Of a DNA stretch of 64,000 nucleotides, positions 1,541-60,028 are shown piece after piece. This stretch comes from an uncultured Phocaeicola sp. (GTDB taxonomy: Bacteria > Bacteroidota > Bacteroidia > Bacteroidales > Bacteroidaceae): assembly GCA_964469845.1 (NCBI GenBank), contig CAYXZF010000002.1, positions 1,031 through 65,030 on the forward strand. Direction: 5' to 3'. Under the pieces are notes generated by a model. The model ran no database searches. It saw only the letters and a list, made by a program, of their open reading frames with translations, and was not told the origin of the DNA. Both the position numbers and the translations under genes were made by a program. Numbering within the stretch: the stretch's first letter is position 1; each line of letters opens with the position of its first letter.

Positions 1541-3997
1541 ATGGCGAAGAAAAAAACAGAAAAGGCTACAGAGCCGACAGAAATAAAGAGTAATAAAATA
1601 AAGACGTTCATCCAAAACGAAACAACCCATTTCGTCGTCGGATTGGTTTGTGTGATATTTGCCGTATATCTGCTATTGGCATTTACTTCATTCTTTTTCA
1701 CCGGAGCAGCTGACCAAAGCATATTGGACAACCAACTGCCCGGCGAACTGATGCAGACCACCAATCACGTAAAGAACTATGCCGGAGCACGCGGAGCACA
1801 GTTGGCCGAGTACCTCATCAACGGATGTTTCGGAATAGCGGCCTATTTCTTGGTACTCTGTCTGGCGGTGTCGGGCATGAGATTGATGCGTGCCTACCGC
1901 TTCCGTATTTGGAAATGGTTCATGTCTTGTACGGTAATGACTATTTGGTTCTCCATCTTTTTGGGATTTGTGTTCGAAAGTACGTTCAGCGGAACGCATG
2001 TTTATCCGGGAGGATTGCACGGCTACAATGTAAGCCGATGGTTGGCATCGCAGGTAGGCACGACTGGAGTGTGGCTTCTGTTGCTGACTACAGCCATTCT
2101 GTTTTTCGTTTACTTGAGCAGCGAAACCATGAAAGTGGTTCGTAAAGCCTTGCATCCGGAGTTCAATAAAAAACCTAAAGAACCTCAAAATCAGCCCGAA
2201 GATACAACAGCAAATCCTGACCCGGGACCGGTTGCACAGCAACCTTATACCGATCCGCAACCGATGGAAGTGATGTTTGATGTGCCAACGGAACCAAGAC
2301 AAGAGGAAAACAGTGAACCGGAAGCAGTCTTCCCCTTTGACGAACCGAAGGTGGAAGAACCCGAACCGAGTCCGACACCCGCAACGGAGAACAACGACAA
2401 AGAAGTTTCCGCCACCCCCGAACCCGACTTCATCATCACCGATGAACACACAGAAGACGATGAAGCTTACAACGGTCCGACACAGGAACCGTACAACCCC
2501 CGTCTGGATTTGGAAAACTACAAATTTCCTCCTCTCAACCTGTTGGAATCATACGATGAAAGCGACATCGCCATCGATATGGAAGAACAAAACGCCAACA
2601 AAAATCGCATCATCGAAGTGTTGCGCAACTTTGACATCGAAATCAGTTCCATCAAGGCAAGCGTAGGTCCTACCGTGACACTCTACGAAATTACTCCGGC
2701 ACCAGGTGTACGCATCGCCAAAATCCGCAACTTGGAAGATGACATCGCACTGAGCATCGCCGCCCTCGGCATCCGTATCATCGCGCCCATTCCGGGCAAA
2801 GGAACCATCGGTATCGAAGTGCCGAACGCCAAACCGCGCATTGTGCCCATGCAGTCTATCCTGAACAGCAAGAAGTTTCAAGAAACAACCATGGAGTTGC
2901 CCATCGCCTTAGGAAAGACCATTACAAACGAAGTGTATATGGTGGACTTGGCCAAGGCGCCGCACATGCTGATTGCCGGTGCTACCGGTCAAGGAAAATC
3001 CGTCGGTCTGAACGCCATCGTTACTTCCTTATTATATAAGAAGCATCCGGCGGAACTGAAATTTGTTATTGTAGACCCGAAGAAAGTGGAATTTTCGGTC
3101 TATGCACCGATAGAACGTCACTTCCTTGCCAAACTGCCCGATGGCGAAGATGCCATCATCACCGATGGTGACAAAGTGGTGCAAACACTCAACTCGCTCT
3201 GCCAAGAAATGGACACTCGATACGACTTACTGAAAAAGGCCGGATGCCGTAATATAAAGGAATATAACAGCAAGTTTATCAGCCGCAAACTGAACCCGGA
3301 AAAGGGACATCACTTCATGCCTTACATCGTGATTATCATCGATGAGTTCGGCGACCTGATTATGACCGCAGGCAAGGAAGTGGAACTGCCCATTTGCCGC
3401 ATCGCCCAGTTGGCGCGTGCCGTGGGTATCCATGCCATCATCGCCACCCAGCGACCGACGACAAACATCATCACCGGTACCATCAAGGCGAACTTCCCCG
3501 CACGTGTAGCCTTCCGGGTAGCCGCCATGATGGACTCACGCACCATTCTCGACCGTAGCGGTGCACAGCAGCTTATCGGTAAAGGAGACATGCTTTATCT
3601 GCAAGGGAATGACCCGGTGCGCGTACAATGCGCCTTTGTCGATACTCCCGAAGTAGAACGCATCGCCAACTATATCAGCAAGCAGCAAGGGTATCCGACA
3701 GCCTTTATGCTGCCCGAAGTAGAAAGCGAAGAAGGAGAAAGTTCTGTCGGCGATGTAGACATGAATCGTTTGGATCCGATGCTTCGCGAAGCCGCCGAAC
3801 TGGTTGTGGCTCACCAGCAAGGTTCCACTTCACTCATTCAGCGCAAGTTCTCCATCGGTTACAATCGGGCCGGACGCATCATGGATCAGTTGGAACGAAT
3901 CGGGGTGGTAGGTCCTTCTCAAGGAAGCAAAGCCCGCGATGTGCTTTGCATAGACTTGACTGATTTGAATATGCGTTGGAATAATATACAACAATAG
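1541..3997 (+). CDS. ftsK: DNA translocase FtsK/SpoIIIE
   Basis: N-terminal TM helices, a Pro/Glu-rich linker, Walker A GATGQGKSV, Walker B IIIDEFGDL and a C-terminal gamma wHTH (STSLIQRKFSIGYNRAGRIMDQLE). ATG at 1541 preferred over TTG at 1511. Confidence 0.93.
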   Translation: MAKKKTEKATEPTEIKSNKIKTFIQNETTHFVVGLVCVIFAVYLLLAFTSFFFTGAADQSILDNQLPGELMQTTNHVKNYAGARGAQLAEYLINGCFGIAAYFLVLCLAVSGMRLMRAYRFRIWKWFMSCTVMTIWFSIFLGFVFESTFSGTHVYPGGLHGYNVSRWLASQVGTTGVWLLLLTTAILFFVYLSSETMKVVRKALHPEFNKKPKEPQNQPEDTTANPDPGPVAQQPYTDPQPMEVMFDVPTEPRQEENSEPEAVFPFDEPKVEEPEPSPTPATENNDKEVSATPEPDFIITDEHTEDDEAYNGPTQEPYNPRLDLENYKFPPLNLLESYDESDIAIDMEEQNANKNRIIEVLRNFDIEISSIKASVGPTVTLYEITPAPGVRIAKIRNLEDDIALSIAALGIRIIAPIPGKGTIGIEVPNAKPRIVPMQSILNSKKFQETTMELPIALGKTITNEVYMVDLAKAPHMLIAGATGQGKSVGLNAIVTSLLYKKHPAELKFVIVDPKKVEFSVYAPIERHFLAKLPDGEDAIITDGDKVVQTLNSLCQEMDTRYDLLKKAGCRNIKEYNSKFISRKLNPEKGHHFMPYIVIIIDEFGDLIMTAGKEVELPICRIAQLARAVGIHAIIATQRPTTNIITGTIKANFPARVAFRVAAMMDSRTILDRSGAQQLIGKGDMLYLQGNDPVRVQCAFVDTPEVERIANYISKQQGYPTAFMLPEVESEEGESSVGDVDMNRLDPMLREAAELVVAHQQGSTSLIQRKFSIGYNRAGRIMDQLERIGVVGPSQGSKARDVLCIDLTDLNMRWNNIQQ

Positions 3998-4034
3998 ATA
4001 AAATCATTTGTTACAACAAAAACTTGAACGGATT

Positions 4035-4637
4035 ATGAAAAGACAATGGATATTATGGATAATAGCTCTCCTCCCCTACTGCCTTTATGCGCAGCAGGAT
4101 GTCAAGGCTGCCGAAATACTTGACAAAGTGATTGCGCCATTAAAGGAAGGTGGCATCCGAACCGAGTTTACAGGGACAGAAAACGGTCTCCTGCTGCTGA
4201 AAGGAAAGAAATTCTACTTGCACAGTGGCAATGTACAAAGTTGGTACGATGGAAATACACTGTGGAGCTACACGGCCGACAACGAAGAAGTAAACATCAG
4301 TTGCCCCACTTCCGAAGAGTTGCAAGCCATCAACCCTTACCTCTTGCTGACCAACTACAAGACCGACTATTACTATACTTGCAAGGAAACGGTCGGTTCA
4401 AACGGAGCGGAAAGATATGAAATTACCCTCCTCCCTCAAAAACCGGATACGCAAGACATCATTCGCCTGGTTATCAGTAAAGACTATCGCCCCCGCTCCA
4501 TCAAAGTGGAACGCAACGGACGAACAGTGAGCGACATCAACATCCGTGTTTACAAGACCCGACAAAAGCTGGAGGACAGTATGTTTCGGTTCAACAAGAC
4601 ACTCTACCCGCAAGCCGAAATCATAGACCTTCGATAA
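4035..4637 (+). CDS. LolA-like outer-membrane lipoprotein carrier family protein
   Basis: Signal peptide MKRQWILWIIALLPYCLYAQ. Size (about 200 aa) and position directly after ftsK are typical of Bacteroidales lolA-like genes. Confidence 0.65.
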   Translation: MKRQWILWIIALLPYCLYAQQDVKAAEILDKVIAPLKEGGIRTEFTGTENGLLLLKGKKFYLHSGNVQSWYDGNTLWSYTADNEEVNISCPTSEELQAINPYLLLTNYKTDYYYTCKETVGSNGAERYEITLLPQKPDTQDIIRLVISKDYRPRSIKVERNGRTVSDINIRVYKTRQKLEDSMFRFNKTLYPQAEIIDLR

Positions 4638-4681
4638 CATATAAAAATAAATATCAGAGAACAATAAAAGGAGTTAAGATT

Positions 4682-5629
4682 ATGAGTACAGAAAGAGTAA
4701 AATGCCTGATTATCGGTTCAGGCCCCGCAGGCTATACAGCCGCCATCTATACCGGTCGTGCAAACATCAACCCGGTGCTTTACGAAGGCATCCAGCCCGG
4801 TGGTCAGCTGACCATTACGACAGAAGTAGAAAACTTTCCGGGCTATCCCGACGGTATCGCCGGCACACAACTGATGGACGACCTGCGCCAACAAGCCGAA
4901 CGGTTCGGCGTGGAAATCCGAACAGGTATCGTAACCCGAGTAGACTTCAGCGAACGTCCCTATAAAATCACCATTGACGATGAAAAGGAACTGGAAGCCG
5001 AAACCGTGATTATCTCAACCGGTGCATCCGCCAAGTACCTCGGCCTGGAGGATGAAAAGAAATACGCCGGCATGGGAGTCAGTGCTTGCGCCACTTGCGA
5101 TGGTTTCTTCTATCGCAAGAAAGTGGTGGCCGTAGTAGGCGGTGGCGATACCGCTTGCGAAGAAGCCATCTATCTGGCGGGATTGGCCAATCAGGTTTAC
5201 CTGATTGTCCGCAAACCGTATCTTCGCGCTTCACAAATCATGCAGGAACGTGTGATGAATCACCCGAAGATTCAGGTGCTGTTCGAACACAACACCGTAG
5301 GTCTGTTTGGCGAAAACGGTGTGGAGGGCATCCATCTCGTCAAGCGCAAAGGCGAGCCCGATGAAGAATACTACGATTTGGCCATCGACGGCTTCTTCCT
5401 GGCCATCGGACACAACCCCAACTCGGAAGTGTTCAAACCGTGGATTGACACGGACGAAGTGGGCTACATCATTACCGAGGGAAACAGTCCGCGTACCAAG
5501 GTTCCAGGTGTATTTGCAGCCGGCGACGTAGCCGACCCGCACTATCGCCAGGCCATCACCGCCGCAGGAAGTGGCTGTAAAGCAGCCATCGAAGCCGAGC
5601 GCTTCCTTTCTGCCAACGGATTGCTTTAA
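4682..5629 (+). CDS. trxB: Thioredoxin-disulfide reductase
   Basis: GSGPAGYTAA FAD motif, CATCDG redox-active disulfide, GGGDTACEEA NADPH motif; 315 aa. Confidence 0.95.
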   Translation: MSTERVKCLIIGSGPAGYTAAIYTGRANINPVLYEGIQPGGQLTITTEVENFPGYPDGIAGTQLMDDLRQQAERFGVEIRTGIVTRVDFSERPYKITIDDEKELEAETVIISTGASAKYLGLEDEKKYAGMGVSACATCDGFFYRKKVVAVVGGGDTACEEAIYLAGLANQVYLIVRKPYLRASQIMQERVMNHPKIQVLFEHNTVGLFGENGVEGIHLVKRKGEPDEEYYDLAIDGFFLAIGHNPNSEVFKPWIDTDEVGYIITEGNSPRTKVPGVFAAGDVADPHYRQAITAAGSGCKAAIEAERFLSANGLL

Positions 5630-5661
5630 AACAAGAACACGATTCATTTAAATCTATCAAC

Positions 5662-8487
5662 ATGAAAAAGTTAGTCAAAAGAACTTTTGCTGCAATGGTA
5701 TTACTGGGCAGCTTTGCAACGGCATCGGCCCAGCAGCCTCAAATGCCTCCTATCCCGACAGACCCCAATGTCCGTATCGGTAAATTGGATAACGGATTGA
5801 CTTACTACATCCGCCACAATGAACTGCCCGAAAAACGGGCCGACTTCTACATCGCACAGAAAGTGGGTTCCATTTTGGAAGAAGATAACCAGCGAGGATT
5901 GGCTCACTTCCTGGAACACATGTGTTTCAATGGAACCACCCACTTCCCCGGCAAGGGTATCATCAACTGGCTGGAGACCATCGGAGTTCGCTTCGGCGAG
6001 AACTTGAACGCATACACCAGCATTGATGAAACCGTTTATAATATCGACAACGTGCCCGTCATCCGTGACGGCATTGTGGATTCCTGTCTGCTCATTCTGC
6101 ACGACTGGGCGAACGACCTGACCCTCGACCCGAAAGAGATTGATAACGAGCGCGGCGTTATCCACGAAGAATGGCGTACCGGTCAGGGTGCTATGATGCG
6201 CATGTACGAACAAGCACTTCCGAAAGCATTCAAAGGCAGCAAATACGGTCATCGCCTGCCCATCGGCACCATCGAAGTCATTGACAACTTCCCGTATCAG
6301 GCTCTCCGGGACTATTACGAAAAGTGGTATCGTCCCGACCAGCAAGGCATCGTGGTAGTGGGCGATATTGACGTAAATAAGGTAGAAACCAAAATCAAGG
6401 AAATGTTCTCTTCGATTGAAATGCCCGCCAATGCCGCCAAACGTGTGTATGAACAGATTCCCGACAACAAAGAACCCATCATCACCATTGCCAAAGACAA
6501 AGAACAACCTTCAACGATGATTTACGTCTGGCACAAGCATCCGGCTACCCCGAACGAAGCCAAAGGAAACATCGGTTATCTGGCACAGAACTATATGCTC
6601 TCCATGATTTCCCAAATGCTGAACGCCCGTTTGGATGAACTCCGTCAGACTGCCAACCCTCCTTATGTTATGGCTGCAACCGAAGATACCGACTTCTTGT
6701 TGGCGAAAACAACCCAAGCATTTGCCGGCATCGTTGTCAGCAAGGAAGACGGAATACCCACCGCTTTCTCGGCGTTGGTTCGCGAAATCGAGCGCGCCCG
6801 CAAATTCGGATTCACCGCCTCGGAATATGCCCGTGCCAAAGCTGATTATCTTCGCACCTTGGAATCGAGCTACAACGAACGCGAAAAAGTGAAGAACAAT
6901 CAGTATGTAGAAGAATACATCCGCCATTTCATTGACAACGAGCCGATACCGGGAATCGAAACCAAATATGCTTTGATGAACCAATTGGCTACAAATATCC
7001 CGGTGGAAGCTATCAACAGCCTCCTCCCGCAACTGATAACCGATGAAAACATCGTCATCAACATCTTCGGTCCGGACAAGGAAGGCATGGTCTATCCGAC
7101 GGAAGCCGAAATCCTTGACATCTTGAAGAACACCAAGGCAGAAAATATCACCGCATACGTAGACAAAGTATCGGATGAACCCTTAATGAAAGAAACTCCG
7201 ACCGCCGGTAAGGTTATAAAGACCGAAGAAGGTCCGTTCGGTTCCACGGTGTGGACACTGTCGAACGGTGTGCGTGTTGTATTGAAGCCGACCAATTACA
7301 AGGCTGACGAAATCCGTATGCGCGCTTTCAGTCCCGGCGGCTCCTCTGTATTCGGGACCAACGAACCGATTCAAGTCAAGACGCTGAATGCGGTAGCCGG
7401 TCTGGGCGGTCTGGGTAATTTCAGCAAGGTGGATTTGGAAAAGGTACTTGCCGGTAAGAAAGCAAATGTCAGTGCAAGCATCAACAGTTTGTCGGAAGGA
7501 CTGAACGGTAATTGCTCGCCCAAGGATTTTGAGACGTTGATGCAACTCACTTACCTGACATTCACTTCACCGCGTATGGATCAAGACGCTTTCGCTTCTT
7601 ACAAGAACCGTACAAAAGCCAATCTGGCCAACCAAGAAGCCAATCCGATGACTGCGTTGGTAGATACGTTGAACCAAGCCATGTATTCCAACCATCCGAT
7701 GGCTATCCGTTTGAAAGCTGACATGATTGACCAAATCAACTACGACCGCATCATGGAAATGTACAAGAATCGTTTCATGGATGCAGGCGACTTCACTTTC
7801 CTGTTTGTTGGAAACATCAACCCAAACGAAGTGAAGCCATTGATTGAAACCTACTTAGGCGGTCTGCCTACCGGCAAACGCGTAGAGAACTTCAAGGATA
7901 TTCAGTTGGACATCCGCAAAGGTGCCTATAAAAATGTCTTTGAAAAGCAGATGGAAACCCCGAAAGCAACCGTATTGCTCATCATCAGCGGCAAGTGCGA
8001 CTACAACTTGAAAAACAGTCTGATGATGACCATCCTGTCGCAAAGCATGGACATGGTTTACACCGAAGAAGTGCGTGAAAAGGAAGGGGGAACGTATGGA
8101 GTCGGTACGGGCGGAAGTCTGAGCCGTTATCCGAAAGACGATGAAGCCATCTTACAGATACAGTTTGATACAGACCCGAACCGTCTCGAACAGATGGTGG
8201 GAATCATCACCGGCGAACTGAAGAAAGTAGCCGAACAGGGGCCTAATCCCGAACATATTAATAAGGTAAAGGAATTCCTGTTAAAGAAACACCTCGAACT
8301 GGAAAAAGAGAACGGTTACTGGCTGGGAGCACTGAACAATTACTATTGGTATCATGCCGATATGGACACGAACTACGAAGAAGTGCTGAACAGCATCACA
8401 GCCGATGACATCAAAAACTTCACCAAGGCTTTACTCGAACAAGGTAACTGTATCGAAGTAAGCATGACTTGCAACGAAAAGAAATGA
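5662..8487 (+). CDS. Secreted M16 family zinc peptidase (insulinase/pitrilysin-like, PqqL-type)
   Basis: Signal peptide followed by the inverted zincin motif HFLEHMCF (HxxEH). 941 aa, two-lobed M16 architecture. Confidence 0.9.
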   Translation: MKKLVKRTFAAMVLLGSFATASAQQPQMPPIPTDPNVRIGKLDNGLTYYIRHNELPEKRADFYIAQKVGSILEEDNQRGLAHFLEHMCFNGTTHFPGKGIINWLETIGVRFGENLNAYTSIDETVYNIDNVPVIRDGIVDSCLLILHDWANDLTLDPKEIDNERGVIHEEWRTGQGAMMRMYEQALPKAFKGSKYGHRLPIGTIEVIDNFPYQALRDYYEKWYRPDQQGIVVVGDIDVNKVETKIKEMFSSIEMPANAAKRVYEQIPDNKEPIITIAKDKEQPSTMIYVWHKHPATPNEAKGNIGYLAQNYMLSMISQMLNARLDELRQTANPPYVMAATEDTDFLLAKTTQAFAGIVVSKEDGIPTAFSALVREIERARKFGFTASEYARAKADYLRTLESSYNEREKVKNNQYVEEYIRHFIDNEPIPGIETKYALMNQLATNIPVEAINSLLPQLITDENIVINIFGPDKEGMVYPTEAEILDILKNTKAENITAYVDKVSDEPLMKETPTAGKVIKTEEGPFGSTVWTLSNGVRVVLKPTNYKADEIRMRAFSPGGSSVFGTNEPIQVKTLNAVAGLGGLGNFSKVDLEKVLAGKKANVSASINSLSEGLNGNCSPKDFETLMQLTYLTFTSPRMDQDAFASYKNRTKANLANQEANPMTALVDTLNQAMYSNHPMAIRLKADMIDQINYDRIMEMYKNRFMDAGDFTFLFVGNINPNEVKPLIETYLGGLPTGKRVENFKDIQLDIRKGAYKNVFEKQMETPKATVLLIISGKCDYNLKNSLMMTILSQSMDMVYTEEVREKEGGTYGVGTGGSLSRYPKDDEAILQIQFDTDPNRLEQMVGIITGELKKVAEQGPNPEHINKVKEFLLKKHLELEKENGYWLGALNNYYWYHADMDTNYEEVLNSITADDIKNFTKALLEQGNCIEVSMTCNEKK

Positions 8488-18793: not shown

Positions 18794-19300
18794 TTACTTC
18801 ACCACTTCGGCAAAGTAATCAAGATGCTCGTCCACATACTCGGCGATATGAGCTGTAACCTGTTCTTCCATGTCCATAAACTCCTCCTCCAAATCGTCGA
18901 AAGCCTCGTATTGCTCATACATCGCCATAAACTCGTCATCGTCACGCTCCTTCTCCAAATCCTCACGATTTTCATCGTATATTTTCTTGGCGGTATATAT
19001 CAGCTTTGAAAAGTCCTTTACCCCGAACAGACGCATCGCCTTGGCAAAGGGGTTATCGAAGATGTAAGGACCGTATCCGTTCTGGATGAGCTGCACGAAT
19101 CCGCCTTCGTTCACCTCTTCACGAAAAATGTGATAGCCCAGCAACGAATGCTGATACCCGTTAAGCAACGGCATCGTATCGGCATCGACGACTCCACCCG
19201 TCACCTCCTGATACTTATCGATGAACACTTTCAGAAAGCCGTCCATACCTTCTTCCGCTCCCCGGCGGAGAGCCTCATCCGCAATTTTGATTGTTTCCAT
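18794..19300 (-). CDS. DUF4375 (DMP19 C-terminal-like) domain protein
   Basis: 168 aa, acidic. EVNEGGFVQLIQNGYG matches the NGGF-type core remembered for DUF4375/DMP19-like proteins. Confidence 0.6.
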   Translation of the reverse strand: METIKIADEALRRGAEEGMDGFLKVFIDKYQEVTGGVVDADTMPLLNGYQHSLLGYHIFREEVNEGGFVQLIQNGYGPYIFDNPFAKAMRLFGVKDFSKLIYTAKKIYDENREDLEKERDDDEFMAMYEQYEAFDDLEEEFMDMEEQVTAHIAEYVDEHLDYFAEVVK

Positions 19301-19334
19301 ACGCTATTCCTATTTATATATATCATTCAGGGCG

Positions 19335-19342
19335 CAAAGATA
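19335..19342 (-). promoter_or_regulatory. Bacteroidota -7 box (TATCTTTG on the minus strand) for the DUF4375 gene
   Basis: CAAAGATA on the plus strand is TAnnTTTG on the minus strand, about 35 nt upstream of the ATG at 19300. Confidence 0.45.
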
Positions 19343-19395
19343 AGCCTTTCGGCGAAAAAGAAAAAACTTTTTTAAAAAAGAAGAGGGCGTTCTTG

Positions 19396-19426
19396 TTTGG
19401 TAAAAAGAATAAAACCACTAACTTTG
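19396..19426 (+). promoter_or_regulatory. Bacteroidota sigma-A type promoter (-33 TTTG, 19-nt spacer, -7 TAACTTTG) for the NifU-like/GGGtGRT operon
   Basis: TTTG at 19396-19399 and TAACTTTG at 19419-19426, about 75 nt upstream of the ATG at 19501. Confidence 0.55.
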
Positions 19427-19500
19427 TGGCTGAATTGGGCTGATGCCCTTTTCAAACGTGGTTACGAATATATTTTTGTATTACTAAAAACGTAAAGAAT

Positions 19501-20202
19501 ATGGTTTATTCACACGAAGTTGAACACATGTGTGTTGTAAAGAAGGGTCCTAACCATGGACCGGCTCCAATTCCTGAAGAAGGTAAGTGGGTAAAATCAA
19601 AAGAAATCAAAGACATTTCCGGTTTGACACACGGTATCGGTTGGTGCGCTCCTCAGCAGGGTGCATGTAAACTGACACTGAACGTAAAAGAAGGTGTTAT
19701 TCAGGAAGCGTTGGTCGAAACAATCGGTTGCTCAGGTATGACTCACTCTGCAGCCATGGCTTCAGAAATCCTCCCGGGCAAAACTATCTTGGAAGCATTG
19801 AACACCGACTTGGTGTGCGACGCTATCAATACAGCCATGCGCGAATTGTTCCTGCAAATTGTTTACGGTCGTACTCAGTCTGCTTTCTCAGAAGGCGGCT
19901 TGGTTATCGGTGCCGGTTTGGAAGACTTGGGTAAGGGTCTTCGCAGTCAGGTAGGTACTCTGTATGGCACATTGGCCAAGGGTCCCCGTTACTTGGAAAT
20001 GGCCGAAGGCTACATCAAGCGAGTGGCTCTTGACAAGGATGACCAGATTTGCGGTTATGAGTTCGTTCACCTGGGTAAATTCATGGACGAAATCAAGAAG
20101 GGTACAGACGCTAACGAAGCTTTGAAGAAAGTAACAGGTACTTACGGACGCTTCACAGCCGAACAGGGTGCAGTTAAACATATTGATCCACGTCACGAAT
20201 AA
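19501..20202 (+). CDS. NifU/IscU-like domain protein of unknown function (partner of the GGGtGRT protein)
   Basis: 233 aa. GACKLTLNVKEGVIQEA and ETIGCSGMTHSAAMASE resemble the first two Cys-containing segments of the IscU/NifU N-terminal scaffold. Confidence 0.7.
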   Translation: MVYSHEVEHMCVVKKGPNHGPAPIPEEGKWVKSKEIKDISGLTHGIGWCAPQQGACKLTLNVKEGVIQEALVETIGCSGMTHSAAMASEILPGKTILEALNTDLVCDAINTAMRELFLQIVYGRTQSAFSEGGLVIGAGLEDLGKGLRSQVGTLYGTLAKGPRYLEMAEGYIKRVALDKDDQICGYEFVHLGKFMDEIKKGTDANEALKKVTGTYGRFTAEQGAVKHIDPRHE

Positions 20203-20220
20203 TATAAGGAGGAAAAAACT

Positions 20221-21231
20221 ATGATTAGAGAAGTAAAATTCGAAAGCCAAGACCGTCGTATCAAGCAGATTCTCGCTGCATTGAACGAAAACGGTATTAA
20301 AGACATCGAAGAAGCTAACGCTATCTGCGACCAATATGGTTTGGATCCTTATTTGGCATGTGAAGAAACTCAGCCTATTTGCTTTGAAAACGCCAAATGG
20401 GCTTACGTGGTAGGTTGCGCCATCGCTATCAAGAAGGGCGTGAAGACAGCTGCCGAAGCTGCCGAAGCCATCGGTATCGGCTTGCAGGCATTCTGCATCC
20501 CGGGTTCTGTAGCCGATGACCGTAAAGTAGGTCTCGGACACGGTAACCTCGCAGCAATGTTGCTCCGCGAAGAAACAAAGTGTTTCGCATTCTTGGCAGG
20601 TCACGAATCATTCGCAGCAGCCGAAGGTGCCATCAAGATTGCCGCTAAGGCCGACAAGGTGCGCAAGGAACCGCTTCGCGTTATCTTGAACGGTTTGGGC
20701 AAGGACGCCGCTCAGATTATTTCACGTATCAACGGCTTTACTTACGTACAGACTCAGTTCGACTATTATACAGGCGAATTGAAAGAAGTACAACGCATCG
20801 CTTACTCTGACGGTCCCCGTGCAAAGGTAAACTGCTATGGTGCAGACGATGTTCGCGAAGGTGTAGCCATCATGTGGAAAGAAGGCGTAGACGTATCCAT
20901 CACAGGTAACTCTACCAACCCTACTCGCTTCCAACACCCGGTTGCCGGTACTTACAAGAAGGAACGCGTATTGGCTGGTAAGCCATACTTCTCAGTAGCT
21001 TCAGGTGGCGGTACAGGTCGTACTCTTCACCCGGACAACATGGCTGCCGGTCCTGCTTCTTACGGTATGACAGACACTATGGGCCGTATGCACTCAGATG
21101 CTCAGTTCGCTGGTTCTTCATCAGTTCCTGCTCACGTAGAAATGATGGGCTTCCTCGGTATCGGTAACAACCCGATGGTAGGATGTACAGTTGCTTGCGC
21201 CGTAGACGTTGCTACAGCTTTGAATAAGTAA
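20221..21231 (+). CDS. GGGtGRT family protein (function unknown)
   Basis: 336 aa containing the literal family signature SGGGTGRTLHPDN. It starts 18 nt after the NifU-like gene and is followed by a strong terminator. Confidence 0.8.
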   Translation: MIREVKFESQDRRIKQILAALNENGIKDIEEANAICDQYGLDPYLACEETQPICFENAKWAYVVGCAIAIKKGVKTAAEAAEAIGIGLQAFCIPGSVADDRKVGLGHGNLAAMLLREETKCFAFLAGHESFAAAEGAIKIAAKADKVRKEPLRVILNGLGKDAAQIISRINGFTYVQTQFDYYTGELKEVQRIAYSDGPRAKVNCYGADDVREGVAIMWKEGVDVSITGNSTNPTRFQHPVAGTYKKERVLAGKPYFSVASGGGTGRTLHPDNMAAGPASYGMTDTMGRMHSDAQFAGSSSVPAHVEMMGFLGIGNNPMVGCTVACAVDVATALNK

Positions 21232-21308
21232 TCAATACTTAACCGCAATAAAAAATCCCTGTAGCTCGATGAGTTACGGGGATTTTCTTTTTTCATTTTT
21301 GTATTAAA
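21076..21308 (+). repeat. Direct repeat copy 1: last ~155 nt of the GGGtGRT gene plus its terminator
   Basis: Aligns by eye at roughly 90 percent identity with 22469-22705 (about 20 substitutions and a 1-nt indel). Confidence 0.9.
21254..21293 (+). terminator. Intrinsic terminator of the NifU-like/GGGtGRT operon
   Basis: AATCCCTGTAGCTC / GAGTTACGGGGATT stem (with G-U pairs) followed by TTCTTTTTT. Confidence 0.75.
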
Positions 21309-21410
21309 CCGTCATCTAAAATACTTCAGTACATAGAACGACTGTTTAACAACAACCTAAACACTTACCTGTTTTTTCTTGTTATGGTTGTATTTTATAC
21401 AAGAAATCAC

Positions 21411-21418
21411 TAATTTTG
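21411..21418 (+). promoter_or_regulatory. -7 box TAATTTTG for the inserted three-gene cassette
   Basis: Exact TAnnTTTG match about 60 nt upstream of the ATG at 21479. Confidence 0.5.
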
Positions 21419-21478
21419 CATAGAATAAAAATTCAATCATGAAGTGCGAAATCGCTGTTTAATTGGAAATACCCATTT

Positions 21479-21718
21479 ATGGAAGAAATCAGAAAAATAT
21501 CGAAAGAGCAAATTGTAATGTCGTTTGTAGCCACTTGCATTGAAACAACTGCAAGACAACTGAACACAACTTACAATGAGATATTCCAACGAATGGAACG
21601 TGTTGGTTTGATTGAAAATTATATCATACCTAATTACGAACCTCTCCATAGCGAAAGCCGTGAAGTTCTGGCAGAACGTATCATTGAATGTTTAAACAAC
21701 TGGGAAAATAGATTATGA
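21479..21718 (+). CDS. Small helical protein, DUF3791-like (copy A)
   Basis: 79 aa. Its stop overlaps the next start (ATGA at 21715-21718). Family name is by recollection of Bacteroides/Clostridia annotations, where it pairs with DUF3990. Confidence 0.65.
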   Translation: MEEIRKISKEQIVMSFVATCIETTARQLNTTYNEIFQRMERVGLIENYIIPNYEPLHSESREVLAERIIECLNNWENRL

Positions 21719-22206
21719 ATACAATTGTAGTATATCACGGAGGTACAGAAAAAATAGAAAGCCCTATTTGCAAACTTGGACGAAAGAATCTGGATTTCGG
21801 CCAAGGTTTCTACATTACCAGTTTACGTAAACAAGCAATCACATGGGCAAACAGCATGGCTGGAAACAGAAATATGCCTGCCGTGCTAAACCGATATAAA
21901 CTGGATAGAGATAGCATTTTGAGAGAAGCCAAATGTAAAATTTTTAAGGCATACGATAAAGAATGGCTTGAATTTATCGTTGGCAATCGTACAGGACAAA
22001 ACTTAGCAAAGGATTATGATTATGTAGAAGGCGGTGTAGCAAATGACCGTGTTATTGATACAATCAATTTATATATTGCCGGATTGATAGATTTCGGTTC
22101 TGCATTGAGAGAACTGGCGAAACACCAACCCAACAATCAAATATGTATGCTCAACCAAGAACTCGTAAACAAGTATCTCACTTATGATGGAACAGAAGAA
22201 TTATAA
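21715..22206 (+). CDS. DUF3990-like protein with a PARP/ART-like H-Y-E motif pattern
   Basis: 163 aa. VVYHGG (H8), DFGQGFYITS (Y33) and DYVEGG (E105) occur in the order expected for an H-Y-E ADP-ribosyltransferase fold. Confidence 0.7.
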   Translation: MNTIVVYHGGTEKIESPICKLGRKNLDFGQGFYITSLRKQAITWANSMAGNRNMPAVLNRYKLDRDSILREAKCKIFKAYDKEWLEFIVGNRTGQNLAKDYDYVEGGVANDRVIDTINLYIAGLIDFGSALRELAKHQPNNQICMLNQELVNKYLTYDGTEEL

Positions 22207-22435
22207 TAATCCTACCAAGTCACCGGTCATTCAGGAAATCATAATGAGCAATAGAATTGGTGCCATCAGTATTCTCTTGGCAGAACAGCTTAATATCAAT
22301 AGTGTTAAAGCACTAAAACTGTTCTATATGAGCCAAACATGTGCCAACTTACATGATAAATCAACCGGACTCTATCTGTATGGTGATTTATATGTTGTTG
22401 ATGAGTTTATAAGAGAAATGGAGAATAGGCAATAA
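22184..22435 (+). CDS. Small helical protein, DUF3791-like (copy B)
   Basis: 83-aa ORF overlapping the previous gene by 23 nt; an alternative start is MSNRIGAIS at 22244. Weak similarity to copy A (I[IV]MS..A.QLN..E.I.E). Confidence 0.6.
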   Translation: MMEQKNYNNPTKSPVIQEIIMSNRIGAISILLAEQLNINSVKALKLFYMSQTCANLHDKSTGLYLYGDLYVVDEFIREMENRQ

Positions 22436-22468
22436 TCATGCGACTTATTCCGAACACATCAAATAAAA

Positions 22469-22625
22469 ACTATGGGTCGTATGCACTCCGACGATCAGTT
22501 TGCCGGTTGTTCATCAAGTACCTGTTCACGTAGAAATGATGAGCTTCTTGGGCATCGGCAACAACCCGATGGTAGGTTGTACAGTAGCTTGCGCCGTAGA
22601 CGTTGCTACTGCTTTGAATAAGTAA
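22469..22625 (+). pseudogene. Degraded duplicate of the 3' end of the GGGtGRT gene
   Basis: Homologous to 21076-21231. It has no upstream coding sequence and carries a 1-nt insertion (TCATCAAGTACC versus TCATCAGTTCC) that breaks the frame after ..FAG.SS. Confidence 0.85.
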
Positions 22626-22647
22626 TCAATACTTAATCGCAATAAAA

Positions 22648-22686
22648 AATCCCTGTAGCTCGATGAGTTATAGGGATTTTCTTTTT
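22648..22686 (+). terminator. Duplicated intrinsic terminator, now closing the inserted cassette
   Basis: AATCCCTGTAGCTC / GAGTTATAGGGATT stem followed by TTCTTTTT. Confidence 0.65.
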
Positions 22687-22749
22687 ATATTTTGTCGCAT
22701 TAAAAATAGGCTTTGTACCCTTTTGTCTTTTGAATGAACACTTCACCGA

Positions 22750-23553
22750 TTACTCCTTGACCACCAAGATGGACATTTCATACAGCAAATAGAGCGGAAT
22801 AGCTACCAACAGCATGGTGAACGGGTCGCCGGAAGGGGTGATGACCGCCGAAAGCACCATGAGACCGACCACCGCATAAGACTTGTACTGACGAAGGAAA
22901 GACTTATTAATCAACCCTAAGATAGAGAGAATCCATGCCAACAAAGGCATTTCGAAAACAATTCCCATCACCATAATCATCATGATGAAATTGCCGATGT
23001 AAGACGAAAGGTCAATCTGATTAAGGATGGAGGCACTCAGTTCATACTCGGTCAAGAAACGGAAGCAAAAAGGAAAGACCAAAAGATAAGCCACCATACA
23101 CCCCAAATAAAACATCAACGTGCCACCGACGAAAGCAAATCGCACATGCTTCACTTCGTGATCGAACAAAGCGGGACGAATGAATTTCCATATTTCATAG
23201 ATAACATAAGGAAAGGCTACGACCAACGCCAAGGATATGGAAGTGCTGATGTGTGTAAAGAACTGGGACGCCACATTGATGTTGATTATCTGGATGGCGA
23301 AATCATCGGAGAAGTTGAACAAGCCTCCACTGACTGCCTCCAACCAACGGTAAACAAAGAAGTCGCCCGTGGTAGGGGCAAGAATGTATCGGTCAAAGAT
23401 GTAAGGCATCGCCATAAAGGTAAACACCGTTGCCACCGCCAACACGCCAGCAATACGCACCAATGCCCATCGCAAAACTTCCAAATGATCCCAAAAAGTC
23501 AATTCTTCCTCACTATGCAGCACTTCGGGCTGCGCTTTCGTTTCCTTTTCCAT
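22750..23553 (-). CDS. tatC: Twin-arginine translocase subunit TatC
   Basis: 267 aa, 6 TM helices. Colinear with E. coli TatC (LEVLRWAL.., EIWKFIRPALF.., FEMPLLAWIL.., TPSGDPFTMLLVAIPLYLLYE). Confidence 0.93.
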   Translation of the reverse strand: MEKETKAQPEVLHSEEELTFWDHLEVLRWALVRIAGVLAVATVFTFMAMPYIFDRYILAPTTGDFFVYRWLEAVSGGLFNFSDDFAIQIININVASQFFTHISTSISLALVVAFPYVIYEIWKFIRPALFDHEVKHVRFAFVGGTLMFYLGCMVAYLLVFPFCFRFLTEYELSASILNQIDLSSYIGNFIMMIMVMGIVFEMPLLAWILSILGLINKSFLRQYKSYAVVGLMVLSAVITPSGDPFTMLLVAIPLYLLYEMSILVVKE

Positions 23554-23624
23554 TTCTTTTATTTATACACAAGAGATGTCCCCACCCATTCCTTGTGCAG
23601 GGACATCTCCTATTTACTTAATAC

Positions 23625-24536
23625 TTATTTACTATAACCGGTTTTTACGAAGTCGGCCTTCAACAGATAGTCCGCACAGGCACGCACTCCTTCCATCATG
23701 TCTTCATGTTCATAGGCTTCAGCCTCTACCACGATGTGTTCCACACCGGCGATTTCAGCATGGTTGAAGATGGCATCGAAACCCACCATACCGCTTTGGC
23801 CTATCTCCTTCTGATCCTTGATGTGCAACAGCTTGAAGCGACCCGGATACTTTTTGAAATAGGCAACGGGGCTGGCTTTTCCCATCACTGTCCAGTAAAC
23901 GTCCATCTCGAAGAATACATGTTGCGGATTGGTATGCGCAAGCATATAGTCAAGCATCACTTCCCGTTCTTCCACCTTACGGAACTCGTGCGAATGATTG
24001 TGATAACCATACTTCAAGCCCGCTTCGGCACATTTCCGTCCGATAGCGTTGTGATAATCGCACCAAGTCTGCAAATCCTTCACCGTTTCGGGGACGGACT
24101 GCGATGGAGTGACAATATACTCCATACCCGCAGCCTTATGAGCCGCGATACATTCGTCCCACCACTTCATGGTTTCTTCCGAAGGCTGTCCGGCTTTCAA
24201 CTCTTCCTCCGACAAACCGCGAGTGGTGTGTGTAGAGAGAGCTTTCAGTCCGGCCTTTTCCACACATGCCTTGAAGTCTTCGGGAGCCATACCGTAAATC
24301 TTTCCGTCCGCATAACTGGCCGTCTCAACGGTGGTATATCCCATCCGAGCCAATCCGGAAAGAATCTGTTCCTGATTGGAGGCAAACTTTTCCGGGCTGC
24401 CAATCAACTGACGGATGGAATACAACTGAAGCCCGATGTCCTTCTTCGGTGAAGTCATTTCTTTGGTTTGAGAGGGAGTACAAGCAGCCAATGCCAATGC
24501 GGCACCGGCTACCATTGTATAAACAATTTTTTTCAT
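23625..24536 (-). CDS. Xylose isomerase-like TIM-barrel protein (sugar phosphate isomerase/epimerase family), lipoprotein
   Basis: Lipobox LALAAC. GLQLYSIR.. start, HNHSHEF and HIKD motifs typical of the AP-endonuclease-2/xylose-isomerase-like barrel. Confidence 0.8.
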   Translation of the reverse strand: MKKIVYTMVAGAALALAACTPSQTKEMTSPKKDIGLQLYSIRQLIGSPEKFASNQEQILSGLARMGYTTVETASYADGKIYGMAPEDFKACVEKAGLKALSTHTTRGLSEEELKAGQPSEETMKWWDECIAAHKAAGMEYIVTPSQSVPETVKDLQTWCDYHNAIGRKCAEAGLKYGYHNHSHEFRKVEEREVMLDYMLAHTNPQHVFFEMDVYWTVMGKASPVAYFKKYPGRFKLLHIKDQKEIGQSGMVGFDAIFNHAEIAGVEHIVVEAEAYEHEDMMEGVRACADYLLKADFVKTGYSK

Positions 24537-24540
24537 CGGC

Positions 24541-25392
24541 TTAATCCATCACCTTGATACGGACATTGCGAATCCAAACATCGTCACCATGATCTTGGAA
24601 ACCGATGTAACCTTCGTGGTTTTCACCGCCGCAGTTATTCAAAAGTTCGAATGCCAACGGCCACTTGGCCTGACTGAACTTGCTGGCTTGAAGCATATCC
24701 GTCCATTGCGGTGTCCACAAGTGATATTCCAACACGTTTTCACCGTTCTGACCATGAACCACAGTGCCTTTGTAAACCATTATCTTACCTTCGTTCCATT
24801 CACCGTAAGGCTTCTGGTTCTGGGGCACGGCGGGAATCATATCGTACAAAGAAGCCGACTGACGATTATTGTCCTTACCCAACTTCGCATCGGGATGGTT
24901 GGCATTGTCGAGCAACTGATATTCCGGTGAAGAGATGTAAATGGGTTCGTAGTTGGTTTTACCATCCTTTTCGGTAGTCACTTCTTGAGCCAAGTAGAAA
25001 CAACCGGAGTTACCACCCTTAGAAACCTTCCAGTCGAACAAGAGTTCAAAATTCTTGAACTTGTGAGCGAAGATGATGTCGCCGCCATCGTTGCGCTGGC
25101 CTTCACCGTCACCGGTGCCGCAGAACTTCAAACAACCGTCTTCCAACACCCAACGACCGGGTAATTTATCCTTGCCGTATCCTCTCCATCCATCGAGTGA
25201 AGTTCCATCGAACAGCACGATGTAACCATCCTTGTCCACTTTATATTGACTGAGATCCACCTGTGGGTTTTCCACCACGGTATAAGCCGGAGTTTCTTCC
25301 ACTGCTTCTGCATTCTGCTTTTTCTGGCTTCCGCCACATGCCGCCAAGCCCAAAGCCAAAACCACGGCAGCTACGTATGTTTTCTTTTTCAT
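24541..25392 (-). CDS. DUF1080 (3-keto-disaccharide hydrolase family) lipoprotein
   Basis: Lipobox GLAAC. LFDGTSLDGWRGYG and the C-terminal GYIGFQDHGDDVWIRNVRIK are hallmark DUF1080 segments. Confidence 0.8.
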   Translation of the reverse strand: MKKKTYVAAVVLALGLAACGGSQKKQNAEAVEETPAYTVVENPQVDLSQYKVDKDGYIVLFDGTSLDGWRGYGKDKLPGRWVLEDGCLKFCGTGDGEGQRNDGGDIIFAHKFKNFELLFDWKVSKGGNSGCFYLAQEVTTEKDGKTNYEPIYISSPEYQLLDNANHPDAKLGKDNNRQSASLYDMIPAVPQNQKPYGEWNEGKIMVYKGTVVHGQNGENVLEYHLWTPQWTDMLQASKFSQAKWPLAFELLNNCGGENHEGYIGFQDHGDDVWIRNVRIKVMD

Positions 25393-58822: not shown

Positions 58823-60028
58823 TTATAAGTCATCGGCAATCAGTTCGTTGGCTCTGTCAATCGTTGTCGAATCGATGGACGCAAGATAGATTTGCGTGGT
58901 CGAAACGGAATCATGTCCAAGTGCATCGGAAATGACATGAACCGGAACATTCTTCACCTTGGCTATGGTCGCCCAAGTATGGCGGGTGACGTAAGTGGTA
59001 AGAACGGCCGGCAAACAAAGCATCTTCGCAATGACTTTGAGGGATTTATTGACGCGCCGCAAGGCAGACGCATACTGCATACGCTCATTCTTTCCGGGAG
59101 CCGTGATAATGGGGAGCAAATACGGTGTCCTTCCGGTCGAATAACGGCCGATAAGTTCGTCAATCTGCTTGATGATTTTGACGTGAAGCAACTGCCCCGT
59201 CTTGTGCCGCCGATAGCTCAGCATCCCGTTCTGAACATCCGATTTTCGCAAGAAAGCGGCATCGATAAACGACATCCCCCTGCACAGAAAAAGGAAAAGA
59301 AACATATCCCGCGCAAATCGCAAACCGGGTCTGCGCGAGAGGTCCAGTTCCTTTATCCGCTTGAGGTCATCAATGGATATGGCTCGTTTCTGTGTTTTTT
59401 CGATGCCGGTAAATACGTTTCGGAAAGGCTTGCTATCAGCCACCAGTTCCTGTTCGACCGCACGATTGTAAACCGCCCGAAGAATGCGCAAATAAAAAGA
59501 TGTGGAATTGGGGGAAAGCCCGGCCGAATAAAGATAGGCTTGATAATCCTCAATGACCACCGTGTCGATGGCCTCGAACGAAATATCCTCGTCCGCACGG
59601 AAACGCTTGAAACGCCCCAAAGCGGCACGATAATTATCGGCTGTCCCCATGCGTCCCAATTGTTCCTGCCTGCTTATGAGGTTCTCCATGAAAAAGAAAA
59701 ACGTACCCTCCCGGCAAACACGCTTGAACTCCCGAATCACGTCATCGGGCGAAGAGATGCCTTGCCGATTGTCAAAACCCACAATGATTCTGCGCAACCT
59801 CTCCACATCCCAATACAACCTCCGCTCCATCGTTTGGACAACCATCGCCCGTTCATATCCAAGATCGTCAGAAACAAACCGAGCGTGTTTTATATCCCAT
59901 TCGGCGGGAAAGACTTTGTAATCGGTCGTAATCTGACGGACCATGTTATCCCCGATTACCCGAAGAACGATACTGCCCGGACGACCAGCAATCGACGACG
60001 GGCGAAATTTTACTCTAACTGTAGTCAT
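58823..60028 (-). CDS. Tyrosine site-specific recombinase/integrase (Bacteroides-type, N-terminal arm-binding domain)
   Basis: 401 aa. Catalytic region TRHTWAT and LGHDSVSTTQIYL (R..HxxR..H..Y). The N-terminus MTTVRVKFRPSS is typical of Bacteroidales integrases. Confidence 0.9.
   Translation of the reverse strand: MTTVRVKFRPSSIAGRPGSIVLRVIGDNMVRQITTDYKVFPAEWDIKHARFVSDDLGYERAMVVQTMERRLYWDVERLRRIIVGFDNRQGISSPDDVIREFKRVCREGTFFFFMENLISRQEQLGRMGTADNYRAALGRFKRFRADEDISFEAIDTVVIEDYQAYLYSAGLSPNSTSFYLRILRAVYNRAVEQELVADSKPFRNVFTGIEKTQKRAISIDDLKRIKELDLSRRPGLRFARDMFLFLFLCRGMSFIDAAFLRKSDVQNGMLSYRRHKTGQLLHVKIIKQIDELIGRYSTGRTPYLLPIITAPGKNERMQYASALRRVNKSLKVIAKMLCLPAVLTTYVTRHTWATIAKVKNVPVHVISDALGHDSVSTTQIYLASIDSTTIDRANELIADDL

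Follow-up and report, generated by a model that had tools for sequence, protein, structure and literature searches.

Members of the ICESt1/ICESt3 family reside in the 3′ end of fda in Streptococcus thermophilus, and NBU1 resides in the 3′ end of a tRNA-Leu gene in Bacteroides. Insertion in the 3′ end of a gene, with the element supplying a replacement end, is described for integrative islands, integrative and mobilizable elements, and integrative and conjugative elements (PMC5704250). The present analysis concerns a locus in an uncultured Phocaeicola sp. (contig CAYXZF010000002.1, positions 1,031 to 65,030 of the forward strand; this whole stretch of 64,000 nucleotides is referred to as the window), in which a three-gene cassette is bracketed by two copies of the 3′ end of a GGGtGRT gene. 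Copy 1 forms the end of the gene itself, and copy 2 lies beyond the cassette. Protein clusters also place the organism in Bacteroidaceae, as that of GGGtGRT includes a B. uniformis member and that of a neighbouring gene bears the family name. The unit at 21076-22468 is probably an integrase-less, decayed mini-island that resembles a cis-mobilizable element (CIME) and was left by site-specific integration into the GGGtGRT 3′ end. It is an object of a familiar type and reveals no new mechanism. An integrative element with a replacement 3′ end had been proposed in an earlier sequence-only reading of the window, and this interpretation is supported by empty sites, by the alleles of copy 2 and by the position of the junctions, within the limits that copy 1 is a mosaic, that the unit contains neither an integrase nor arm-type repeats, and that it looks decayed.

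Like islands that replace a gene 3′ end, the window unit keeps its target gene intact through an element-borne end, displaces the native end as a direct repeat, is matched by empty sites in conspecifics, and has its junction at the boundary used by a tyrosine integrase family. Unlike those islands, it has no integrase and no arm-type sites, and its repeat is 233 nt long and diverged, whereas the usual attachment (att) repeats are short and identical. The features shared with CIMEs are the lack of an integrase and the bracketing by a pair of att-derived repeats at the site where intact relatives reside, together with tandem accretion at the same site, which is seen in the related loci L144 and L138 (labels of this form denote fetched relative contigs or loci, and coordinates without a label are window positions). 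CIMEs were, however, defined in Firmicutes, whereas the window unit belongs to Bacteroidota, lacks arm-type repeats, and shows no conservation of the left arm of attR.

Regarding the layout of the repeats, a repeat finder returned two direct-repeat blocks, namely 21076-21123 versus 22469-22516 (48 nt, 85% identity) and 21123-21299 versus 22517-22693 (177 nt, 92% identity). As the blocks are spaced by 1393 and 1394 nt, respectively, copy 2 contains one base more than copy 1. Pairwise alignment with MAFFT placed the onset of homology abruptly at ACTATGGG (21076/22469) and its fading at about 21308/22705, approximately 75 nt beyond the stop codon; over their whole lengths (21076-21308 and 22469-22705), the copies are ~90% identical. 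The sequence-only reading had described direct repeats of about this identity with one 1-nt indel, and both methods agree with it. Its other statements on the layout are also confirmed. Copy 1 consists of the final 156 nt of the open reading frame (ORF) for the 336-aa GGGtGRT protein and an intrinsic terminator. Copy 2 has no GGGtGRT sequence on its 5′ side and carries a +1 frameshift (one extra base near 22516), with its own terminator intact. The region between the copies, with a GC content of 0.32-0.39 compared with 0.45-0.55 in the flanks, is occupied by three co-oriented, overlapping ORFs. Each junction was recovered at 99.9-100% identity in Logan contigs assembled independently from 10 or more runs (L006, L007, L009, and L119-L128), which reproduce the joins of the gene to copy 1, of copy 1 to the cassette, and of the cassette to copy 2. 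Therefore, the arrangement is not an assembly artefact of this record.

The native copy can be recognized from strains in which the insert is missing. In five contigs (L001-L005), the DNA of which is 97-98% identical to the window, GGGtGRT is directly followed by tatC, and the encoded GGGtGRT protein is identical to the 336-aa protein of the window. L001-L005 represent conspecific strains with an unoccupied attB, and the empty sites that the sequence-only reading suggested looking for among relatives do exist. Copy 1 differs from the empty-site allele (L001) at 11 positions, all 11 of which are synonymous third positions, and copy 2 holds the empty-site base at every one of these 11. The changes private to copy 2 are four missense changes, a swap of the Leu codon CTC to TTG, and the 1-nt insertion near 22516. 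Since copy 2 combines native alleles with changes of decay, it is identified as the displaced original 3′ end, now a decaying pseudogene fragment, and copy 1 as the replacement. The coding parts of the two copies differ at 17 positions, 12 of which are third codon positions. This bias had earlier been read as divergence under coding constraint, which applies to copy 1 compared with the native allele but not to copy 2, whose own changes are mostly missense, as in a decaying pseudogene. Along the gene, the window and L001 differ at 14 of the 855 positions 5′ of 21076, at none in 20923-21083, and then at 11 in 21084-21216 (133 nt); given the background rate of the gene, 11 or more differences within 141 nt have a Poisson probability of 3e-5. 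All contigs with the tatC allele of the window itself end at a 33-nt stretch common to both terminators, as would be expected if all strains of the window lineage were occupied.

The GGGtGRT 3′ end is also associated with integrase-bearing islands in other genomes. The genes of a 6.6-kb island in L144 are, in this order, an integrase pseudogene, genes for HEPN_RiboL-PSP, GmrSD_N, and a HicB-like protein, two unassigned ORFs, and, as the last cargo, a cassette with 88.7% nucleotide identity to that of the window, which is followed by a GGGtGRT 3′ fragment. When the integrase fragment of this island was used as a probe, a full-length tyrosine integrase of 405 aa was found in L047, 345 nt past the GGGtGRT stop codon, with relatives in L096, L050, and L107 and a truncated one in L089. 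The enzyme contains Arm-DNA-bind_5, SAM_5, and catalytic domains and is a heterobivalent tyrosine integrase. It is 97-99% identical across records named B. thetaiotaomicron, B. uniformis, B. xylanisolvens, and B. stercoris, and it sits 345 nt 3′ of the GGGtGRT stop in eight of eight sampled places, which comprise several host backgrounds and differing upstream neighbours. In the titles and abstract openings of 13 papers mentioning GGGtGRT, from a literature collection of incomplete coverage, this gene was not linked to integration or mobile elements.

The boundary of these islands was mapped with island pairs from different hosts, with window position 21076 taken as 0 and 855 nt of GGGtGRT as the upstream part. 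L147 and L148 share 88.5% identity in the upstream part and 99.8% downstream, with the switch from +3; for L151 and L152, the corresponding values are 90.6% and 99.8%, with the switch from +9. The change from species-type to element-type sequence is thereby bounded by +2/+3 in the former pair and +8/+9 in the latter. The island crossover would accordingly fall inside AC-N-ATGGG-Y (window 21076-21084), 153-156 nt before the GGGtGRT stop, and the position of the switches indicates that the islands carry their own last ~51 GGGtGRT codons and terminator. In the window, the foreign-type tract of copy 1 begins between 21075 and 21084 and copy 2 begins at 22469, which is the same site as the island boundary, and the core ACTATGGG is present at both junctions. 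This coincidence of the window junctions with the island boundary is the main evidence for site-specific recombination by this integrase family. The GGGtGRT gene of the window is native up to 21075-21083 and has an element-borne 3′ end beyond, and its protein is unchanged. A second species points to the same position: cassette relatives of ~89% nucleotide identity in L135, L140, L141, and L142 follow an intact GGGtGRT of another species, and the GGGtGRT of the L135 type, which is 13% diverged from the window 5′ of 21076 and differs at 21075, is 100% identical over the next 78 nt (21076-21153). The chance of 78 identical nucleotides at 13% divergence is ~1e-5.

In the integrase islands, an 11-bp tandem repeat and an inverted copy of it are located ~240-290 nt after the stop codon, 5′ of int, in the forms TTTGCAGCCGA in L145, TGTGTGCAATT in L096, and TTTGTGACGGT after the GGGtGRT fragment of L144. 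These repeats are plausible arm-type sites for the arm-binding domain of the integrase. Because such repeats come after its GGGtGRT fragment, the fragment of L144 is probably the replacement end of a second, tandem island that accreted at the same site. A junction of this tandem kind also lies 5′ of the cassette in L138. The terminator that is native to the window species (21247-21291 and 22641-22685), also present at the empty site, is homologous to the replacement-end terminator of the L096/L050/L089 type (L096 4034-4067), and the empty-site 3′ end may itself have descended from an earlier island, or the reverse.

Regarding the origin of copy 1, its alleles and possible donors were compared in 80 related GGGtGRT loci from metagenomes. 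The first 78 nt of copy 1, identical to the L135-type allele, show six changes from the native allele, whereas many other lineages are only one to three changes away. L089-like alleles are matched at 21183 and 21192. Farther on, from 21195 to the end of the terminator (~21290), copy 1 is native-like and nearly identical to copy 2, so that its foreign-type tract is limited to ~21084-21192. A derived A in AATAAAAAATCC is common to both copies and is absent from the empty-site strain and from other lineages. As the terminator-proximal halves are nearly identical and share this derived variant, they were probably homogenised by gene conversion after insertion. The best non-self matches to copy 1 among the 80 loci (L051, L089, L039, and L045) reach 90-92% identity. 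The proposal of an incoming replacement 3′ end is borne out by the empty sites, by the native copy 2, and by the junctions at a known crossover, although copy 1 is a mosaic and not uniformly foreign. Likewise, comparison of each copy separately with other lineages identifies copy 2 as native-type and the start of copy 1 as L135-type, but finds no exact donor for copy 1.

In the favoured scheme, a Bacteroides island integrase would cross over in AC-N-ATGGG-Y near the GGGtGRT 3′ end, the island-borne last ~51 codons and terminator would restore the gene, and the native 3′ end would be pushed to the far side of the island. In the window, copy 1 would represent the element-borne end on the attL side and copy 2 the displaced native end on the attR side, with the three-gene DUF3791/DUF3990/83-aa module as the sole cargo left and with the integrase and arm sites lost or never present. 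The terminator-proximal halves of the copies would then have been homogenised by gene conversion, and copy 2 would have decayed. Since copy 2 is frameshifted, precise excision would now leave a truncated, frameshifted GGGtGRT, and the insert is effectively locked in. The scheme starts from observed features, namely the repeats, the empty site, the polarity of the copies, the coincidence of the junction with the integrase-family boundary, and the family and fold of the cargo. The action of the integrase at this very insertion, the order of the later events, and the activity of the cargo are inferred.

Several observations weigh against this interpretation. No integrase of the GGGtGRT-site family is present anywhere in the 64-kb window, and the sole tyrosine recombinase of the window (58823-60028) is only 25.6% identical to the 405-aa integrase. 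The 11-bp tandem-plus-inverted repeats are absent from 21225-21485, and the attR sequence to the left of the core (CAAATAAAA) is unlike the TATGACAGAY of attB and of the L144 and L138 junctions. The terminator half of copy 1 is native-like and not island-like, so that "element-borne" applies cleanly to ~110 nt only, and the 80 related loci yielded no exact donor of copy 1. The identical unit occurs in one strain lineage only, i.e., there is no sign of recent movement. In L145-L152, neither a second GGGtGRT fragment nor another core was found up to 10 kb from the integrase, and a full two-ended island was not captured; likewise, no intermediate was found in the lineage of the window itself. Retention of working att sites in the window unit is doubtful. 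The unit was said in the sequence-only reading to encode no recombinase, and this is confirmed by the ORFs and Pfam matches of 21076-22705, where only three small ORFs lie between the repeats and no integrase, relaxase, or transfer genes are present, and by tblastn with the 405-aa integrase, which gave no match inside the unit. The consequence drawn there, that a recombinase would act in trans, can be given a candidate in the integrase family described above, although the unit, being devoid of arm-type repeats, looks decayed rather than active. The recombinase at 58823-60028 (minus strand) is a 401-aa protein with Phage_int_SAM_5 and Phage_integrase domains, encoded between genes for a thioredoxin-family lipoprotein and a GH3 glycosidase.

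An active, non-autonomous mini-element is an unlikely alternative. In such a case, the 1394-bp unit (copy 1 plus the cassette) would be excised as a circle and integrated by the in-trans integrase of a full GGGtGRT-site island. Both junctions lie exactly in the crossover region of the integrase family, and in the second species, represented by the L135 type, a related cassette directly follows a replacement 3′ end with no integrase between them. The attP junction of the circle would read CATCAAATAAAA joined to ACTATGGGCCGTATGCACTCAGAT, and excision from the window would re-form an attB with ATGACAGAC joined to ACTATGGGTCGTATGCACTCCGACGAT; however, this excision would break GGGtGRT through the frameshift of copy 2. 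The missing arm-type repeats, the poor conservation of the left core arm of attR, and the restriction of the identical unit to one strain lineage also speak against activity. Many metagenome contigs of the cassette family are only 1.3-1.5 kb long, as such an element would suggest, but these are equally explained by assembly breaks at repeats or by cassettes in multiple contexts.

Excised circles had been proposed as something to look for, and the Logan contig L008 (SRR19576311) is in fact a circular permutation of exactly 1394 nt, being 1423 nt long with a 29-nt terminal overlap. Its repeat, however, is a hybrid, of the copy 2 type on the left and of the copy 1 type after the 33-mer, which is the sole stretch of 31 nt or more that both copies share, whereas a circle made by an integrase would hold pure copy 1. 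L008 fits a cycle in a de Bruijn graph with k=31, which it probably is, and a circle formed by homologous recombination within the 33-mer is possible. As an excised integrase circle it was rejected on account of the hybrid repeat, and it is uninformative in this respect.

The related idea that the unit is a still-mobile, integrase-less "gene-end cassette", with a minimal attP (the GGGtGRT replacement end) fused to a defence or toxin module and moved in trans by the integrases of full-size GGGtGRT-site islands, is similarly unlikely. If true, it would mean that defence-gene cassettes are exchanged at a protein-coding att site in Bacteroidaceae, with an integron-like logic and a different build. 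The unit resembles integron cassettes in that its small, promoter-proximal cargo of ~1 kb has no recombinase of its own. It differs from them in carrying the end of its target gene and in the recombinase family concerned, which is that of the heterobivalent island integrases. No IntI-like gene and hence no IntI/attI platform is present, and no attC-type site was recognized, as a repeat scan of 19000-25000, which used no dedicated attC model, detected no long inverted repeat at either end of the cassette beyond the two terminators.

RecA-dependent homologous recombination appears still less probable, whether as Campbell-style integration of a small circle via the 233-nt homology or as import of the whole locus from an occupied donor. 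Homologous exchange does act at this locus, given the near identity of the right repeat halves and their common derived A, which other lineages lack. Copy 1 is moreover pieced together from several lineages, and the build of L008 is that of a circle formed by homologous recombination within the 33-mer. However, a single crossover predicts reciprocal hybrids, with copy 1 native on the left and foreign on the right and copy 2 the reverse, whereas copy 1 is foreign-type from within 8 nt of its left edge and copy 2 is native throughout. If the whole locus had been imported, copy 2 should be of the donor type, and neither version accounts for the coincidence of the junction with an integrase-island boundary in other species. 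Import from a donor lineage, which the sequence-only reading had offered as a second option, is not needed for the junctions, although it may be the route by which this strain lineage gained the locus. Local tandem duplication of the gene end, followed by insertion of an unrelated cassette and mutational divergence, would produce direct repeats around an insert and almost identical terminator halves, but it is highly improbable: all 11 copy 1-specific differences are synonymous, copy 2 keeps the empty-site allele, no relative shows a duplicated end without an insert, since a second GGGtGRT 3′ fragment is missing from the 3 kb downstream in all 80 related loci, and the six differences in the first 78 nt match L135-type and island 3′ ends, so that independent mutation would have had to recreate the allele of another lineage at six synonymous sites in one copy, which is implausible. 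Homology-facilitated illegitimate recombination was also considered and rejected, as the left edge of copy 2 coincides in homologous position with the donor/recipient switch.

The cargo of the unit matches the PDC-M13 profiles of PADLOC in the order A, B, and C (E values of 6.6e-15, 1.2e-48, and 9.5e-10, respectively). PDC-M13 is a candidate system defined by its association with defence islands; experimental evidence for it was not found in the literature. The same three-gene order occurs in 19 Bacteroidales species in unrelated contexts. The genes overlap by 4 nt and 23 nt, an arrangement which indicates that they are translationally coupled. The third product, the 83-aa protein, has no Pfam match, and the idea that it is a second DUF3791 protein gained no support (hhalign probability 1%; Pfam negative). 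For the DUF3990 protein, the AlphaFold2 model has a predicted local distance difference test score of 90.6, and the best Protein Data Bank (PDB) folds found with Foldseek are ParT and RES (probability 0.92-0.99) and MbcT (0.72); with template modeling scores of ~0.5, E values of ~1e-3, and sequence identities of 8-10%, these matches represent fold-level likeness only. A sequence search of the PDB with DUF3990 gave chance-level matches only. Like ParT of ParST, RES of Xre-RES, and MbcT of MbcTA, on which it is best superposed, the DUF3990 protein is small and its gene is coupled to small partner genes. In contrast to those systems, DUF3791 and the unassigned 83-aa protein take the place of Xre or ParS, and the genes number three instead of two. 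DUF3990 is a member of the ADP-ribosyltransferase (ART) clan of Pfam (PMC7955679) and is known from Serratia as a toxin domain at the C terminus of an Rhs protein (PMC4524185). The cargo is probably a defence module of the toxin-antitoxin or abortive-infection type with a putative ART-fold toxin, in which the toxin would be accompanied by one or two small neutralising partners, and it would act in addiction or abortive infection. The coordinates of the cassette genes and of the other features of the locus are listed in Table 1.

Table 1. Features of the GGGtGRT locus and its insert, in window positions
Feature	Position	Strand	Evidence
NifU-like gene, 5′ partner of GGGtGRT	19501..20202	+	weak PF01592 match
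GGGtGRT gene, integration target, chimeric	20221..21231	+	PF14057 over its full length, E 1e-190
Putative crossover (core) region ACTATGGGC at attL	21076..21084	+	sequence switch points in integrase islands; start of L135 identity
Copy 1, replacement 3′ end (last 51 codons and stop) with terminator, as probable attL	21076..21308	+	
GGGtGRT terminator in copy 1	21252..21286	+	16-bp stem, then T-run; -22.2 kcal/mol, z -5.1
Cassette leader	21309..21478	+	21309-21395 unmatched; 21396-21478 conserved in related cassettes
DUF3791 protein, 79 aa, PDC-M13A-like, presumed antitoxin or partner	21479..21718	+	PF12668, E 1.6e-15
DUF3990 protein, 163 aa, PDC-M13B-like, presumed ART-fold toxin	21715..22206	+	PF13151, E 1e-41
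83-aa ORF, PDC-M13C-like, third cassette gene	22184..22435	+	PADLOC, E 9.5e-10
Cassette tail, right end of inserted unit	22436..22468	+	
Copy 2, displaced native 3′ end, pseudogene fragment with terminator, as probable attR	22469..22705	+	
Copy 2 terminator, now positioned to end the cassette transcript	22646..22680	+	-21.0 kcal/mol, z -6.0
tatC, convergent downstream neighbour	22750..23553	-	PF00902, E 9e-58

The published consensus of the Bacteroides -7 promoter motif is TAnnTTTG. In the cassette leader, TAATTTTG at 21411-21418 fits this motif and is a putative cassette promoter. Homology of the leader to L144 and L129-L131 begins at 21396, and no homologue of 21309-21395 was found in any fetched locus. 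At the other end, the stretch TCATGCGACTTATTCC...AAATAAAA of the cassette tail appears by eye to be homologous to about 6560-6595 of L144, a match that the automatic aligner did not recover; the motif CATGCGxCTTATTC recurs 3′ of related cassettes, and L144 continues for ~110 nt beyond the tail-like stretch before its GGGtGRT fragment.

These results have consequences beyond the window. The GGGtGRT 3′ end is a recurrent attachment site in gut Bacteroides of a very widespread, near-identical tyrosine integrase, with the crossover placed within 9 bp by the sequence boundaries, and in genomes and metagenome-assembled genomes of Bacteroidaceae this att site helps to set the limits of genomic islands and of defence cargo. 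Vertical inheritance may not apply to many GGGtGRT 3′ ends, which could be mosaics derived from elements. The window unit also provides an example of island decay, in which the insert is reduced to a single toxin-antitoxin-like module and decay of the displaced end makes precise excision costly. Finally, short shared k-mers make such loci break up or look circular in metagenome assemblies. Among the metagenome contigs with close relatives of the DUF3990 gene, a large share has a length of only 1.3-1.5 kb; assemblies apparently often break at the cassette, whether because of flanking repeats or because it occupies several contexts in one sample.

On the target side, the pair of the NifU-like gene and GGGtGRT is kept in nearly all of the 80 related loci and the downstream side is variable. 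None of these loci has tatC downstream, which makes the far side of GGGtGRT a general synteny break. Other small modules lie directly 3′ of GGGtGRT in other species (L068 4216-4807 and L072 2464-3540); as read from their sequences, one is a Phd/RelE-type-looking antitoxin-toxin pair and the other a DUF3791-like pair followed by a RhuM-like ORF. L153 contains at 2800-4500 a related cargo module (DUF3871, RadC, and a serine resolvase) adjoining a tRNA-like 3′ fragment. It was considered as a continuation of the island via its resolvase and was rejected, as the site is different and the module ends by the tRNA-like fragment instead of GGGtGRT. Cargo modules are apparently shared among islands with different att specificities.

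On the cassette side, repeats of a neighbouring gene end were tried as a general hallmark and rejected, since most of the cassettes in the 19 GTDB species have no flanking repeats; within this set, the repeats of L014 are REP-like (resembling repetitive extragenic palindromes), and short ones occur only in L012, L021, and L022. Viral contigs gave no match to the junctions, and a single, distant relative of the cassette was found in them. Cassette relatives of 80% identity have their usual place between HU-HIG and DUF4932 genes, and in L031 two inverted cassette copies (142-830 and 3804-4721) flank HU-HIG and AAA-ATPase/PDDEXK_9 genes. In L022 (Segatella copri NZ_JAPEIV010000001.1, 4620-7800), the three-gene cassette adjoins a duplicated vsr endonuclease gene, whose two copies (93% identical over 494 nt) bracket an XRE-like gene and a membrane-protein gene, and the whole 3-kb block lies within 94-nt direct repeats; this block is another small insert between diverged copies of a neighbouring gene.

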